Notes under the pieces: model-generated
The model's input: only the letters and a program-made list of their open reading frames with translations
Told to the model about the DNA's origin: nothing
Databases searched by the model: none
Sequence record: OY720021
Strand: one strand, 5' to 3'
From: Escherichia phage vB_Eco_Solly
Length of the DNA stretch: 64,000 nt
Position numbers and translations under genes: made by a program
In this document: positions 972 through 8,271 of the stretch, piece by piece
Layout: each line of letters starts with the position of its first letter
Position numbering within the stretch: the first letter of the stretch is position 1

Positions 972-2255
972 ATGGCTAAAATCAACGAACTTCTGCGCGA
1001 ATCAACCACAACGAATAGCAACTCAATCGGTCGCCCAAATCTCGTTGCTTTGACTCGCGCTACCACTAAATTAATATATTCTGACATTGTAGCAACGCAA
1101 AGAACTAATCAACCTGTTGCTGCTTTTTATGGTATCAAATACCTTAACCCAGACAATGAATTTACATTTAAAACTGGTGCTACTTACGCTGGCGAAGCTG
1201 GATATGTAGACCGAGAACAAATCACAGAATTAACAGAAGAGTCTAAATTAACTCTCAATAAAGGCGATTTATTCAAATATAATAATATCGTTTATAAAGT
1301 ATTAGAAGATACTCCATTTGCTGATATTGAAGAAAGCGACTTAGAGTTAGCTCTTCAAATTGCAATCGTTCTTTTAAAGGTTCGTCTATTTTCTGACGCA
1401 GCGTCAACAAGCAAATTTGAAAGCTCTGATAGTGAAATTGCGGATGCTAGATTCCAGATTAATAAATGGCAAACCGCAGTTAAATCTCGTAAACTTAAAA
1501 CTGGTATCACAGTTGAATTAGCGCAAGATTTAGAAGCAAATGGATTCGATGCTCCTAATTTCTTAGAAGATTTGCTTGCAACTGAAATGGCAGATGAAAT
1601 CAATAAAGATATTCTGCAGTCTTTGATTACAGTGTCAAAACGCTATAAAGTTACAGGAATTACTGATAGTGGATTCATCGATTTGAGTTATGCATCTGCA
1701 CCTGAAGCGGGTCGTTCATTATATCGAATGGTATGTGAAATGGTTTCGCATATCCAAAAAGAATCAACTTATACAGCAACGTTCTGTGTTGCTTCTGCTC
1801 GTGCCGCTGCGATTCTTGCTGCTTCAGGTTGGTTAAAACATAAACCAGAAGATGACAAATATCTTTCACAAAATGCCTACGGGTTCTTAGCTAATGGTTT
1901 ACCACTTTATTGCGATACTAACAGCCCATTAGATTATGTAATCGTTGGCGTAGTAGAAAATATCGGTGAAAAAGAAATTGTTGGATCAATTTTCTATGCT
2001 CCGTATACAGAAGGTCTTGACTTAGATGACCCTGAACATGTAGGTGCATTTAAAGTTGTGGTTGATCCAGAAAGCTTACAACCGTCTATCGGTTTATTAG
2101 TTAGATATGCTTTATCAGCAAATCCTTATACCGTAGCAAAAGATGAAAAAGAAGCAAGAATAATTGACGGTGGAGACATGGATAAAATGGCGGGTCGTTC
2201 AGATTTGTCTGTTTTATTAGGTGTTAAATTACCAAAAATTATTATTGATGAATAA
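972..2255 (+). CDS. 24: Capsid vertex protein gp24 (gp23 paralog)
   Basis: 427 aa; clear paralogy to the gp23 fragment; TATAAATA at 937..944 and SD upstream. Confidence 0.9.
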   Translation: MAKINELLRESTTTNSNSIGRPNLVALTRATTKLIYSDIVATQRTNQPVAAFYGIKYLNPDNEFTFKTGATYAGEAGYVDREQITELTEESKLTLNKGDLFKYNNIVYKVLEDTPFADIEESDLELALQIAIVLLKVRLFSDAASTSKFESSDSEIADARFQINKWQTAVKSRKLKTGITVELAQDLEANGFDAPNFLEDLLATEMADEINKDILQSLITVSKRYKVTGITDSGFIDLSYASAPEAGRSLYRMVCEMVSHIQKESTYTATFCVASARAAAILAASGWLKHKPEDDKYLSQNAYGFLANGLPLYCDTNSPLDYVIVGVVENIGEKEIVGSIFYAPYTEGLDLDDPEHVGAFKVVVDPESLQPSIGLLVRYALSANPYTVAKDEKEARIIDGGDMDKMAGRSDLSVLLGVKLPKIIIDE

Positions 2256-2257
2256 AG

Positions 2258-2282
2258 CAAAGGGACCGAAAGGTCCCTTTTT
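2258..2282. terminator. Bidirectional terminator between convergent genes 24 and rnlB
   Basis: AAAGGGACC-GAAA-GGTCCCTTT with A/T runs on both sides. Confidence 0.7.
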
Positions 2283-2284
2283 AT

Positions 2285-3289
2285 TTAGCTCACCAACTCA
2301 ATCCAAGCTGGACGAAGTACATCTTGTACCATTTTAACTAATTCCTTTTTAATCAAAGAAGGATTATCTGCTTGAGTTAGAGTAATACCTTCACGAGAAG
2401 TTTCTTCCAAAATATCTTGAACAGTTAGCCCCATCACCTTTCCAAAATCTTTAGGACCAATTTCGCCAATTTTAGAAATAACGTTATTTACTCGGTTCAG
2501 TGTAACGTAACAAGCTAAAATTCCCACCAATTTGTTATCAGCTTCTGATAGTTCAACTTTAGCTTTAATAGGCTTATCGGACTTTTTCTTTTCACTAAAT
2601 TTGGAATTCTTGCATTTAATTGCTACACGATTTCCATTACGAAGCCAAGAAGGATAACAAGGTTTCAATACATATCCTTCAGCGGTAAATACTTCGCCTT
2701 TTGCTTCGGCATTCCAAACGCATTTATTTGCATCAACTAATCCAGCATGGTCTACTGTAAAATTATAATCTTGGACGACAGAATCTAAATCATTTGGCAA
2801 TTTAATAAGCTCTTCAAATTTACCGCGACCTAAAAGTGGAGCCATTTTAAATTTAAATGTATTGCAGAATGATTCCATCATATAATCATCGACATAAGTC
2901 ACATCACCACTTTCTGTAATAACAATAATGTCAAATACATAAAAATCTTTATCACCATAATCGACATTCTTCTGAATGCCAGGTCCAGCGAATTCGCCAA
3001 AGACTTGATAAGATACAACCGCTGAAGTTTCCATAATATCTTGTACTGCTTTAATGGAATCAGCGTAATTCTTTAAAATAATTTCATACCCAAAGAAATC
3101 TTCAGCAGGAAGAATGGGGCCAGTACGTTTAGCGCAAGTCACTTTATCACGCTCAATAATCAACGAGAAATTTGTGCCGTGAATCTTTTCACGAGCTACC
3201 CATTCCCCACCAGTCAATCCCAAACTATAAAGTTTTTCAATAAATTTAGAGTTGTAATGATTTTCAAGACTGCTATACTTTTTAAACAT
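2285..3289 (-). CDS. rnlB: RNA ligase 2 (Rnl2)
   Basis: 334 aa; nucleotidyltransferase motif I KIHGTN near N-terminus; T4 rnlB position after gene 24. Confidence 0.85.
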
Positions 3290-3868: not shown

Positions 3869-5287
3869 TTATGGATAGGTATAGATGATACCAGTTTCTA
3901 AAGCAGTTTTGTGAATGATGTATCCATTACGCGATTCTTGGACATCAACTTCTGGATAGTCTTTCATCATCTTCTGAAGAGTGTAACGATGCAGGTAGTA
4001 TTTACTATCTGGATCTTCAGTTTTCCAATCTTTACCTTCTTCAGTCATTTTTTGGATTTCATCCATAACCCACCAACCGCACCAGATGTAAGCTGAGCTA
4101 CGGTGTGGAAGAGGATGAACATAAGGTAATTCACCTTCTGGTTCTGGAGCAACTTTATCAGTTACCTGAACTTGACCTTCTGCCGTAATAGTTTTGCTAT
4201 CATAATCAGCAGCAGTAACAGTTGCAGTAACTTCAATAGTTTGACTTCCAATAGATGAGGTATCAACTGTATATACATTAGTTGACCCTTCTACAGGAGA
4301 AGAATCTTTCTTCCATGAATACTCAATTTGCGCTTCTTCTGGAGCATCAGTGACATTAGCAGTAAATGTAGCCGAAGCATCTTGCTGAACGTTAATAGAA
4401 GGAGGAGACAATGTAACCTGTGGATTCATTGTCTTCTTATTAACCGTTAATGATACTTCATTCGAAGTAACTTCCTTTTCATTGTAATTTTCAGCAGTTA
4501 CTTGGGCTACGCATTTAATTCTTTTTACTCCACTTGTAGTTGGAGTATAGTTAAATGTAGAGTTAGTTTCTCCACCAACTTGTGAATCATCTACATACCA
4601 CTGATACGTAGCAGATGCTCCATCAGGTTGAGAAGCTAAGGCAGCAGTAAATTGAACTGGGGTTCCGATTACTCCTGCTGGAGGACTATCAGGAGTTACT
4701 GCCAAGGTAGTTGTCTGCTCCTTTTTATTAACAGTCAGTGATACTTCATTAGAAGTAACGCTTAGTGCATCATAATCTGTCGCAGTTACTTGAGCCACAC
4801 ACTTAATTCTTTTTACCCCGCTTTCGGCAGGAGTGTAATTGAACGTAGCGTTAGTTGCTTCGCCCACAGGAGAATCATCTACATACCATTGATAAGTAGC
4901 GTTTGCGCCCGATGGCTGCGAAGCTAAAGCGGCAGTAAATTCAATAGCTGTTCCGATTACTCCAGCGTCAGGGCTATTAGGAGTTACAGCTAAGGTGGTC
5001 GTTTGTGTCTTATTTTGAACTGTGATAGTTGTAGTAGCTTCTGCTGTTTCAGCATCAGTATCTGGGACTGGGTTTGTTGCAACTACTTTAATAGTCTTTT
5101 GACCGGCAGGTCCTTTTAATACATAATTAAAAGTTGCTTCAGCTCCATCTTGTGGAACATCATCTACAGTCCAAGCATATGTAATAGGTCCATCTCCAGT
5201 TTGACCACTGGGTGTAGCAGTAAACTGCTGAGTCTGATCTATAACTCCAGTAGGTGTTTTAGGAGTTATATCAACTGTAAAAGCCAT
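3869..5287 (-). CDS. hoc: Highly immunogenic outer capsid protein Hoc with four Ig-like domains
   Basis: 472 aa; Ig-like repeats rich in T/V/S with YxW and KCVAQVTA motifs; two near-identical 96-aa tandem units; aromatic C-terminal capsid-binding region. Confidence 0.85.
   Translation of the reverse strand: MAFTVDITPKTPTGVIDQTQQFTATPSGQTGDGPITYAWTVDDVPQDGAEATFNYVLKGPAGQKTIKVVATNPVPDTDAETAEATTTITVQNKTQTTTLAVTPNSPDAGVIGTAIEFTAALASQPSGANATYQWYVDDSPVGEATNATFNYTPAESGVKRIKCVAQVTATDYDALSVTSNEVSLTVNKKEQTTTLAVTPDSPPAGVIGTPVQFTAALASQPDGASATYQWYVDDSQVGGETNSTFNYTPTTSGVKRIKCVAQVTAENYNEKEVTSNEVSLTVNKKTMNPQVTLSPPSINVQQDASATFTANVTDAPEEAQIEYSWKKDSSPVEGSTNVYTVDTSSIGSQTIEVTATVTAADYDSKTITAEGQVQVTDKVAPEPEGELPYVHPLPHRSSAYIWCGWWVMDEIQKMTEEGKDWKTEDPDSKYYLHRYTLQKMMKDYPEVDVQESRNGYIIHKTALETGIIYTYP
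4433..5008 (-). repeat. Tandem direct duplication of a 288-bp Ig-domain unit inside hoc
   Basis: Units about 4433..4720 and 4721..5008 align with mostly synonymous or conservative differences. Confidence 0.8.
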
Positions 5288-5296
5288 AAGTTATCC

Positions 5297-5977
5297 TTAT
5301 TTTAATGTTACGAAAGAAGAATTGCGTGTTTCACGAATTAAAACTGATCCGTCACGGTTAATGTAATAAATTAAGCTAAATAAAGTTTGGTGTGCTGACG
5401 CATGCTCAAAACTAGTTGGGTGAGATTTCCAATCAGGAGTTTCAGCAATCCATTGATAAATCCACCAAGGAACAGTGCAGAATCCTGGATTTTTTCCAAT
5501 CAGCTGAAGATTCGGACTAAAGTTTTCCGGAAGAGTAAATACAGACGGCTTTTCAGATTCAATAATCTCAGCTACAGCCTGTTCAAACTTTTCTTCAACA
5601 AAGGGAGTATCTTCAATCAAAACTGAGGTATTTTCAGGAATTTTATCCGTTTCTACTACTTCAATTTTAATGTCAGATTTAACCGGAGAATCAATCAGAA
5701 GTGCTGCTTCTGGATTGACTTCTTCATCGTCATATTTTAATCCCTCTGCGGCATCAGCAGCATCAATTAAGTCTTTAATAGATAACCCATCAGTCTCTGG
5801 CATAGGTTCACTAGCGAGCTTCTGGAGGGCTTCTTCAATATCAACAACGATATTATCAAAAGATTTATTCTTTTTGACCTTTATACCAAACTGTTCAGCA
5901 TATTCAGCTAATTTAGCTTTAGCTTCTTTATTATCATCAAGAGCCTTCAGCTCTGCAATATAATCTTTATCTATCAT
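5297..5977 (-). CDS. inh: Inh-like acidic protein (inhibitor of prohead protease)
   Basis: 226 aa acidic ORF between hoc and uvsW; SD GAGGAAA upstream of ATG. Confidence 0.65.
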   Translation of the reverse strand: MIDKDYIAELKALDDNKEAKAKLAEYAEQFGIKVKKNKSFDNIVVDIEEALQKLASEPMPETDGLSIKDLIDAADAAEGLKYDDEEVNPEAALLIDSPVKSDIKIEVVETDKIPENTSVLIEDTPFVEEKFEQAVAEIIESEKPSVFTLPENFSPNLQLIGKNPGFCTVPWWIYQWIAETPDWKSHPTSFEHASAHQTLFSLIYYINRDGSVLIRETRNSSFVTLK

Positions 5978-5990
5978 AATATTTCCTCAG

Positions 5991-5998
5991 TATAAATA
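5991..5998 (+). promoter_or_regulatory. Late promoter TATAAATA upstream of uvsW
   Basis: Exact TATAAATA 30 nt upstream of uvsW ATG. Confidence 0.6.
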
Positions 5999-6027
5999 TA
6001 GATATATTTATTACATGGTATTTAGAC

Positions 6028-7539
6028 ATGATTGACATTAAAGCACATTTTTATGATTTTAGTCACGTGAGAATTGACTGTGAAGAAAGTACATTTCATG
6101 AACTCCGTGATTTCTTTAGCTTTGAAGCTGATGGGTATCGTTTTAATCCGAAATACAAATATGGCCACTGGGATGGACGAATCCGTCTTTTAGATTATAA
6201 TCGTCTTCTTCCATTCGGCTTAGTCGGGCAAATTAAAAAGTTCTGTGATAACTTTGGCTATAAAGCCTGGATTGACCCGCAAATTAACGAAAAAGAAGAA
6301 TTATCAAGAAAAGATTTTGATGAATGGCTTTCTAAATTAGAAATCTATTCAGGAAATAAAAGAATTGAACCGCACTGGTATCAAAAAGATGCAGTGTTCG
6401 AAGGATTAGTTAATCGTCGTAGAATTCTTAATCTTCCAACATCCGCTGGTAAATCGTTAATTCAAGCTTTGCTTGCTCGGTATTATTTGGAAAATTATGA
6501 AGGTAAAATTCTTATCATTGTTCCAACAACTGCCTTAACAACTCAGATGGCTGATGACTTCGTCGACTATCGTCTATTCAGTCATGCAATGATAAAGAAA
6601 ATTGGTGGCGGAGCATCAAAAGATGATAAATATAAAAATGATGCACCAGTCGTTGTTGGTACATGGCAAACTGTAGTTAAACAACCAAAAGAATGGTTCT
6701 CACAGTTTGGAATGATGATGAATGATGAATGCCATCTTGCTACAGGAAAAAGTATTTCATCTATCATATCAGGTTTAAATAACTGCATGTTCAAATTCGG
6801 TTTGTCTGGTTCATTACGTGATGGCAAAGCTAATATCATGCAGTATGTTGGGATGTTTGGTGAAATATTTAAACCAGTAACGACTTCTAAATTAATGGAA
6901 GATGGACAAGTAACTGAGCTAAAAATTAATAGTATTTTTCTTCGCTATCCCGATGAGTTCACTACTAAATTAAAGGGAAAAACTTATCAAGAAGAAATAA
7001 AAATTATTACGGGGCTTAGTAAAAGAAATAAATGGATCGCTAAATTAGCTATTAAGCTTGCGCAAAAAGATGAAAACGCTTTTGTCATGTTTAAACATGT
7101 ATCACATGGTAAAGCTATTTTCGATTTAATTAAAAATGAATACGATAAAGTTTATTACGTATCAGGGGAAGTTGATACCGAAACCCGCAATATAATGAAA
7201 ACCTTAGCTGAAAATGGTAAAGGAATAATTATAGTAGCTAGTTATGGTGTATTTTCTACTGGTATTTCAGTTAAAAATCTGCATCACGTTGTTTTAGCGC
7301 ACGGTGTTAAATCAAAAATCATTGTATTACAAACAATCGGTCGTGTATTACGTAAGCATGGTTCTAAGACAATAGCAACCGTCTGGGACCTCATAGATGA
7401 TTGTGGCGTTAAGCCAAAATCTGCTAATACGAAAAAGAAATATGTTCATTTGAACTATCTTTTAAAACACGGCATTGATCGTATTCAGCGCTATGCAGAT
7501 GAAAAATTTAATTACGTAATGAAAACAGTTAATTTATAA
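6028..7539 (+). CDS. uvsW: UvsW SF2 DNA helicase, helicase core (ORF ends prematurely relative to a fused 587-aa form)
   Basis: 503 aa; Walker A PTSAGKS and DECH box; stop TAA 7537..7539 inside a stretch where the downstream frame is already open. Confidence 0.9.
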   Translation: MIDIKAHFYDFSHVRIDCEESTFHELRDFFSFEADGYRFNPKYKYGHWDGRIRLLDYNRLLPFGLVGQIKKFCDNFGYKAWIDPQINEKEELSRKDFDEWLSKLEIYSGNKRIEPHWYQKDAVFEGLVNRRRILNLPTSAGKSLIQALLARYYLENYEGKILIIVPTTALTTQMADDFVDYRLFSHAMIKKIGGGASKDDKYKNDAPVVVGTWQTVVKQPKEWFSQFGMMMNDECHLATGKSISSIISGLNNCMFKFGLSGSLRDGKANIMQYVGMFGEIFKPVTTSKLMEDGQVTELKINSIFLRYPDEFTTKLKGKTYQEEIKIITGLSKRNKWIAKLAIKLAQKDENAFVMFKHVSHGKAIFDLIKNEYDKVYYVSGEVDTETRNIMKTLAENGKGIIIVASYGVFSTGISVKNLHHVVLAHGVKSKIIVLQTIGRVLRKHGSKTIATVWDLIDDCGVKPKSANTKKKYVHLNYLLKHGIDRIQRYADEKFNYVMKTVNL

Positions 7540-7552
7540 GGGCTTCGGCCCT
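7540..7552 (+). terminator. GC hairpin at the uvsW / uvsW.1 junction
   Basis: GGGC-TTCG-GCCC then TTT; lies within the frame-break region. Confidence 0.4.
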
Positions 7553-7564
7553 TTGGAGAAAAAG

Positions 7565-7795
7565 ATGTTACTAGAATTTAAACAATTTCTTTATGAAGCT
7601 TCTATTGATGAATTTATGGGTAAAATTGCCTCTTGTCAAACATTAGAAGGTTTAGAAGAACTTGAAGCTTATTACAAGAAAAGAGTCAAAGAAACTGAAT
7701 TAAAAGATACTGATGACATCTCAGTTAGAGATGCTTTGGCAGGAAAAAGAGCTGAATTAGAAGATTCAGACGATGAAGTAGAAGAAAGCTTTTAA
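7565..7795 (+). CDS. uvsW.1: UvsW.1-like ORF = C-terminal domain of UvsW in a different frame
   Basis: Frame +1 relative to uvsW, open from 7523; ATG at 7565 preceded by GGAG; acidic C-terminus. Confidence 0.65.
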   Translation: MLLEFKQFLYEASIDEFMGKIASCQTLEGLEELEAYYKKRVKETELKDTDDISVRDALAGKRAELEDSDDEVEESF

Positions 7796-7850
7796 ATTAA
7801 AAAAGGCCCAACCAAAAAGGAAGGGCCAAAACTATAGACTAAAGGTCACA

Positions 7851-8018
7851 CTATAGCAAAAGTTGTGTTTCATTTAATTGTTCTTCCGAACTTTCTGAAA
7901 CTGGTAGTTCTTTAATGTAATTATAGCAAGGCCCAGGATGTACAGGACCTTTGTCTGTTTCAACAACCAATGCAGAATCGATTGGAGTTTTACAGACAAC
8001 ACAAATCTTATCTGACAT
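7851..8018 (-). CDS. Small Cys-containing protein (55 aa), below ORF-track threshold
   Basis: Manual translation MSDKICVVCKTPIDS...; strong SD GAGGAG 6 nt upstream of ATG. Confidence 0.35.
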   Translation of the reverse strand: MSDKICVVCKTPIDSALVVETDKGPVHPGPCYNYIKELPVSESSEEQLNETQLLL

Positions 8019-8046
8019 GATTGTCTCCTCTGAATTATATATCTAT

Positions 8047-8271
8047 TTATACAACTCTCATATGCATATCAATGCCCATATCTTTAGAATAAAAATATTC
8101 ATCAAGATATCCGGCAAATTTTCCTTTAATATAAAGGACATCTTCACCACACGGGTGGTCGGCCAGGATACGAATATCCTGACGCTTAAGATTATGCTTT
8201 TTCATTAAGAATTGAATTTCCATTTCAAATTCTTCTTCATAATTAAAAGCATCATCAATGCTATATCTCAT
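8047..8271 (-). CDS. Hypothetical protein immediately downstream of uvsY
   Basis: 74 aa ORF; its start overlaps the uvsY stop. Confidence 0.5.
   Translation of the reverse strand: MRYSIDDAFNYEEEFEMEIQFLMKKHNLKRQDIRILADHPCGEDVLYIKGKFAGYLDEYFYSKDMGIDMHMRVV

Follow-up and report, generated by a model that had tools for sequence, protein, structure and literature searches.

The stretch of DNA analysed here, called the window throughout, comprises 64,000 nt of Escherichia phage vB_Eco_Solly (sequence record OY720021). The locus under study holds uvsW, which encodes a helicase, and, directly 3′ of it, uvsW.1, which encodes a small acidic protein. The two genes and the signals around them are laid out as follows.

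5991..5998, plus strand: TATAAATA, an exact match to the T4 late-promoter consensus, 30 nt 5′ of the uvsW ATG (putative promoter)
6028..7539, plus strand: uvsW, complete SF2 DNA/RNA-DNA helicase; ATG at 6028, TAA at 7537..7539; 503 aa, 57.9 kDa, pI 9.3
7538..7553, plus strand: intercistronic hairpin AAGGGC(UUCG)GCCCUU, −9.3 kcal/mol, z = −2.3; shares two bases (7538..7539) with the end of the uvsW stop codon
7555..7558, plus strand: GGAG, Shine-Dalgarno sequence of uvsW.1 as read from the sequence, 6 nt before the ATG at 7565
7565..7795, plus strand: uvsW.1, separate acidic protein; 76 aa, 8.8 kDa, pI 4.2; acidic tail with a terminal Phe
7805..7827, no strand assigned: hairpin between the convergent uvsW.1 and uvsY.-2; −12.6 kcal/mol on the plus strand, −14.8 kcal/mol on the minus strand

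The uvsW frame closes at its TAA, while the +1 frame, whose last preceding stop is a TGA at 7520..7522, can be read from 7523 through to a TAA that ends at 7795; the two frames thus share 14 nt (7523..7536), and a 25-nt spacer lies between the uvsW stop and the uvsW.1 ATG. Two homopolymers, an A4 run (7522..7525) and a T3 run (7533..7535), are present near the end of uvsW, and deleting one base from either in silico yields a single open frame of 588 aa. A preliminary description of this DNA had reported the same stop, the same open +1 frame and a fusion of about 587 aa; on recomputation every coordinate proved exact, and the fusion differs from that estimate by one residue. The description had gone on to propose (i) that a single-base change would restore a full-length helicase of the corrected T4 length, and (ii) that either the phage divides UvsW into a core and a separate protein or the assembly contains a homopolymer indel.

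The 503-aa product was compared with the crystallised T4 UvsW (PDB 2OCA), whose residues 1-502 align with residues 2-503 of the vB_Eco_Solly protein (E=0), the alignment extending to the final native residue of the crystallised chain, ...KTVNL. All of its Pfam domains score above their cut-offs, with UvsW_N (PF21241, 143.7 bits) at the N-terminus, followed by the two SF2 motor domains, matched by ResIII/DEAD (PF04851, 61.7 bits; PF00270, 48.6 bits) and Helicase_C (PF00271, 32.6 bits), and phage RB18 carries the same 503-aa gene. Judged by this alignment, the 503-aa UvsW is already a full-length helicase, and there is nothing for a single-base change to "restore". T4 UvsW has helicase, branch-migration and R-loop unwinding activities; it unwinds R-loops at replication origins as well as branched DNA, and it promotes fork regression (PMC3016281). 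We assume the same helicase, branch-migration and R-loop unwinding activities for the vB_Eco_Solly protein because its sequence is nearly identical to that of T4 UvsW.

The +1-frame ORF is not a chance ORF, because it has its own GGAG and ATG (7565), it encodes a PF11637 (UvsW-1) domain scoring 105.5 bits against a cut-off of 25, and its product is identical to a T4 protein of solved structure. In the NMR structure of T4 UvsW.1 (PDB 2JPN), residues 4-79 match UvsW.1 at 76 of 76 positions, the construct starting with three extra residues and then the Met that it shares with the UvsW.1 start. Homologues in a database of 5.8 billion proteins are uniformly short, all 75 being 52-96 aa long. One of them, the 96-aa UvsW.1 of phage vB_EcoM_IME339, has ~20 aa duplicated internally (CQTLEGLEELEAYYKKRVK) in comparison with the vB_Eco_Solly protein. 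In every homologue examined, the C-terminus (7751..7792 in the window) is an acidic tail with an invariant last Phe (...EESF, ...EEDF or ...EEKF), which resembles SSB-type C-terminal tails. In a survey from 2021, UvsW.1 is presented as a trihelical protein and a potential DNA-binding partner of UvsW (PMC7824862).

The boundaries of the two ORFs are therefore the ends of two separately expressed and solved proteins (2OCA and 2JPN), which supports two genes. Against this, a recent pseudogenisation in vB_Eco_Solly would leave the downstream ORF as a decaying remnant, a reading that the look of a broken frame would by itself suggest. However, 29 columns of UvsW.1 are invariant across 19 diverse homologues, the start signals of uvsW.1 are kept in every genus examined, and its folded structure has been solved, so that we regard such decay as next to inconceivable.

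We then asked how the junction reads in other phages. A 70-nt query spanning it (7505..7574) found 446 phage records that match at ≥99% identity, a T2 record and a T4-derived strain among them, and 47 of 60 evenly spaced rows among the matches listed were identical over 70/70 nt, corresponding to ~390 records. The only record with a net missing base at the junction, among the matches listed, was the T4 record AF158101.6. Since hundreds of genomes sequenced independently of one another share an identical junction, this comparison excludes a homopolymer error confined to this assembly. A one-base homopolymer insertion near 7522..7535, with a single helicase of ~588 aa as the true gene, would find some encouragement in the uninterrupted 588-aa frame that a one-base deletion gives and in the 587-aa ORF of the deposited T4 record. 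Yet that record, a documented error, differs at the hairpin rather than at the homopolymers, the solved structures stop and start exactly at the two ORF boundaries, and other genera have another frame relation, so that no single-base fix exists there. We consider this explanation exceedingly improbable, and an assembly indel was rejected on the identity of the junction across phage genomes together with the solved structures. A gapped pattern for one-base-shorter junctions returned two contigs from IMG/VR, both with the full-length junction, which is too few to weigh.

The fused reading has a history of its own in T4. In GenBank AF158101.6, uvsW is annotated as a gene of 1764 nt encoding 587 aa (AAD42668.1), and the record carries its own note of sequence discrepancies found in this section. 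Where vB_Eco_Solly, RB18, Sf21 and F31 read TTTATAAGGGCTTCGGCCC, AF158101.6 reads TTTAATAAGCTTCGGCCC; the aligned junction is ...GTTAATTTA-ATAAGCTTCGGCCC... in AF158101.6 versus ...GTTAATTTATAAGGGCTTCGGCCC... in vB_Eco_Solly, RB18, Sf21 and Mosigvirus F31. At the GGGC(TTCG)GCCC hairpin, the record thus has one extra A and a G in place of GGG, a net change of −1 base, and its product reads ...NL-ISFGPLEKK-MLLEF... through the fused linker. The 587-aa UvsW of the original T4 sequence is fictitious, a sequencing error, and we infer that the misread arose by gel compression at a very stable hairpin. Nolan et al. (2006) reported that the uvsW.1 stretch had formerly been taken as the C-terminal 76 aa of UvsW, that two ORFs are present in all five T4-like genomes that they studied, that the crystallised T4 protein does not contain this region, and that resequencing of T4 confirmed the two ORFs (PMC1524935); the single T4 uvsW gene has likewise been called a likely sequencing error (PMC6486255).

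These records reverse the statement in the preliminary description that ~587 aa is the corrected T4 length, since 587 aa is the uncorrected length in AF158101.6. They also shift the site at which an error was expected, from the A4 or T3 run to the GGGCTTCGGCCC hairpin, where the historical T4 error lies. Of the comparison with T-even uvsW sequences that it had recommended, the outcome was that the two-ORF state was found, whereas the fused form occurs only in the old T4 record.

Further features of these database entries are worth recording. At 7399..7404, the encoded products differ, with DSAGV in AF158101.6, DDCGV in vB_Eco_Solly and DDAGV in the T4 protein that was crystallised, and the uvsW sequence of AF158101.6 may contain errors besides that at the hairpin. 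The labels "DNA helicase" and "ATP-dependent DNA helicase UvsW" are widespread on the 76-aa UvsW.1 in GenBank, in PHROG 1143 and as the molecule name of PDB 2JPN; the label "DNA helicase" is wrong for this protein and goes back to the T4 ORF in its fused form. The Sf21 record states that its UvsW "lacks 86 C-terminal amino acid residues" and has no annotation for uvsW.1.

As a test of one gene versus two, the junction was compared at 17 loci, which represent at least 13 genera. In all 17, the UvsW stop follows a homologous residue, and the C-terminus conforms to Y-x-x-K-x-[VI]-x-[LI]-stop. In contrast, the frame of uvsW.1 relative to uvsW is +1 at six loci, +2 at eight and 0 at three, and the gap between the genes ranges from −4 to +55 nt, including the overlaps ATGA and GTGA as well as TAATG. 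Any one-base fusion near the uvsW stop is barred in F31, RB49 and PM2, whose spacers contain a stop in the frame of uvsW.1 (a TAG in Mosigvirus F31). The spacer of Shigella phage SF2-1 has A6 instead of A5, the one extra A giving a +2 relation without harm.

In T6, a homing-endonuclease-like ORF of 230 aa with NUMOD3 and HNH motifs (1926..2618 of the T6 locus) sits between uvsW and uvsW.1 as a 0.7-kb insertion. Its boundary is the equivalent of position 7522, and at its 3′ end a duplicate of the final uvsW codons (...RKTVNL) is followed by the hairpin as in vB_Eco_Solly. Short-query matches suggest a T6-like insertion between the two genes in BF15, EC121, F26, AV121 and PYPS2T also. The T6 record itself divides uvsW into uvsW and uvsW-B. 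In Salmonella phage S16 (1..2493 of the locus), uvsW is annotated as gp114, gp114.1 and gp115, which suggests that the S16 helicase gene holds an insertion, and a normal uvsW.1 follows 7 nt after uvsW. Since any frame relation and a 0.7-kb insertion are tolerated between them, uvsW and uvsW.1 are therefore separate genes.

The same comparison bears on a programmed +1 frameshift in the overlap (7523..7536), by which a minor UvsW-UvsW.1 fusion would be made beside the two separate proteins. Such a shift is favored in Tequatrovirus by a +1 frame that opens 14 nt before the uvsW stop and by the stable hairpin after it, and an engineered fusion made by Nelson and Benkovic in 2007 is said to act like the complex of the two proteins. 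However, the frame relation varies (+1, +2 and 0) and is shifted by one base in SF2-1; the close relative Mosigvirus has the spacer TAG in the uvsW.1 frame; by inspection, AAU UUA UAA G contains no +1 slippery site, UUA having to re-pair with UAU; downstream hairpins stimulate −1 rather than +1 shifts, and a −1 shift would miss the uvsW.1 frame; and uvsW.1 has its own GGAG and ATG. We consider it very unlikely that a programmed shift is used here, and it was rejected because the uvsW/uvsW.1 frame relation is not conserved across the 17 loci.

Further, natural fusions were sought with a profile of 19 diverse UvsW.1 sequences against 1.84 billion representative proteins, which gave 36 hits: stand-alone proteins of 40-145 aa, and a group of 260-301 aa that carry the domain N-terminally. 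Two weak hits fell in long proteins, each matching in several separate stretches. No helicase with a UvsW.1 domain at its C-terminus was found among these 1.84 billion representatives, a search that covers one representative per 50%-identity cluster and would thus let a rare fused variant within a cluster escape. A member of the longer group, from Vibrio phage EniLVp02 (2450..3337 of the locus), is a 295-aa protein in which residues 25-77 form the UvsW.1 domain and the part after them matches PHROGs with a cytidyltransferase annotation; its gene lies between a DUF6267 gene and a primase gene, away from uvsW. About 13 representatives of 260-301 aa in the profile search share the layout of the EniLVp02 protein.

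Nelson and Benkovic reportedly found, also in 2007, that UvsW.1 forms a complex with UvsW by binding near the UvsW C-terminus, and that it inhibits or dampens the strand-annealing activity of UvsW.

The intercistronic hairpin is the same in Mosigvirus F31 despite different flanks, and stable hairpins of unrelated sequence occupy the equivalent place in Krischvirus RB49 and Mosugukvirus PM2. Wherever the spacer is at least 25 nt long, a stable hairpin stands right after the uvsW stop, in three sequences from four genera (2464..2481 in locus L006 and the spacer of locus L019 among them), whereas, among the 17 loci, none was found in lineages with short or overlapping junctions. When the 71 nt around the junction were folded, the global structure was not significant (z = −0.84), and only the local hairpin stood out. 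Rfam gave zero matches over 5900..8100, the hairpin included. A consensus terminator scan called neither this hairpin nor that downstream of uvsW.1, because the plus strand has no U-tract after either; at 7805..7827, a U-tract follows only the minus-strand reading. The equivalent of 7805..7827 is annotated as a terminator in T4 record M77695.1, and a conserved bidirectional terminator 3′ of uvsW.1 has been described (PMC1524935). The intercistronic hairpin could be an RNA 3′-end barrier, a weak terminator or a translation uncoupler.

The late-promoter consensus, one match to which lies upstream of uvsW, occurs 12 times in the whole window versus 9.2 matches expected, which alone is not above chance. 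Nevertheless, uvsW is expressed from a late promoter, and the position of TATAAATA fits the published one (PMC3016281).

Together, these data place uvsW and uvsW.1 in the following scheme. uvsW encodes a complete 503-aa SF2 helicase ending at the TAA at 7537..7539; the 25-nt spacer then supplies a stable C(UUCG)G hairpin and the GGAG ribosome-binding site, and ribosomes most probably initiate independently at the ATG at 7565 to make the 76-aa UvsW.1, a small helical protein with an acidic tail. Both genes would probably be carried on one late transcript starting near TATAAATA. Fusability by one base is accidental, stemming from the 25-nt spacer of this lineage, and the same accident allowed a hairpin misread to produce the fictitious 587-aa T4 UvsW.

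We are nearly certain that uvsW-uvsW.1 is an ordinary two-gene unit of a T-even phage (Tequatrovirus, closest to RB18 and T2), and nothing was found in the vB_Eco_Solly sequence against two genes. This two-gene state is already known, conserved and experimentally established in T4 and its relatives, and it is not an assembly error. Thus, of the two options put forward in the preliminary description, a helicase core and a separate protein do exist as two proteins, though not as something peculiar to vB_Eco_Solly, being the conserved state of T4 and its relatives, whereas the assembly homopolymer indel finds no place beside a junction that is the same in hundreds of independently sequenced genomes and protein ends that match solved structures. 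As a further and rather doubtful possibility, uvsW.1 might have remained a detachable cistron to let its dose be set apart from that of UvsW, with the post-stop hairpin of all long-spacer lineages serving as a partial terminator or RNA-stability barrier and the invariant ...EESF tail (compare the SSB and gp32 tails) competing with the gp32 tail on UvsW; if true, such competition would switch UvsW between annealing and unwinding.

The surroundings of the unit differ in other ways from those of related phages. T4 and T6 have segE between inh and uvsW, whereas vB_Eco_Solly lacks it (region 5978..6166). Compared with T4, uvsW-uvsW.1 has 76 substitutions, of which 37 fall within 6033..6166, at the 5′ end of uvsW and the reported SegE target; this cluster looks like the footprint of homing-endonuclease-driven exchange. 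Further away, the hoc ORF (3869..5287, minus strand) encodes 472 aa, whereas RB18 Hoc has 376 aa, and a 288-nt unit occurs twice at 4433..4996 with 76% identity, which equals one additional Ig-like domain.

Publications dating from 2004-2007 already cover the two-gene arrangement, the structures of both proteins and the sequencing error in T4, and there is little here that is new for phage biology. The value of the analysis lies mainly in annotation: the fused ORF of AF158101.6, the main GenBank record for T4, still misleads readers, UvsW.1 is mislabelled in hundreds of genomes, and this junction should not be flagged as a frameshift or an assembly defect in scans.

Among known systems, T4 itself is the closest match. 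T4 UvsW (PDB 2OCA and 1RIF) is near-identical to the vB_Eco_Solly protein across 502 residues, shares its set of UvsW_N and two SF2 RecA-like domains, and has the same C-terminus, ...KTVNL; the genes uvsW.1, uvsY.-2 and uvsY neighbor uvsW in both phages. The vB_Eco_Solly protein differs by one extra residue after the initiator Met (MIDIK versus MDIK in T4) and by a few substitutions, for example DDCGV versus DDAGV, and T4 carries segE immediately upstream of uvsW, where vB_Eco_Solly has none. T4 UvsW.1 (PDB 2JPN; PF11637) starts at the same codon and is likewise encoded directly 3′ of uvsW, with zero differences at the protein level. The 587-aa "UvsW" of AAD42668.1, in turn, spans the same stretch of DNA and corresponds to the fusion put together in the preliminary description, but its fused frame depends on the net −1 base at the hairpin, unlike the vB_Eco_Solly sequence.
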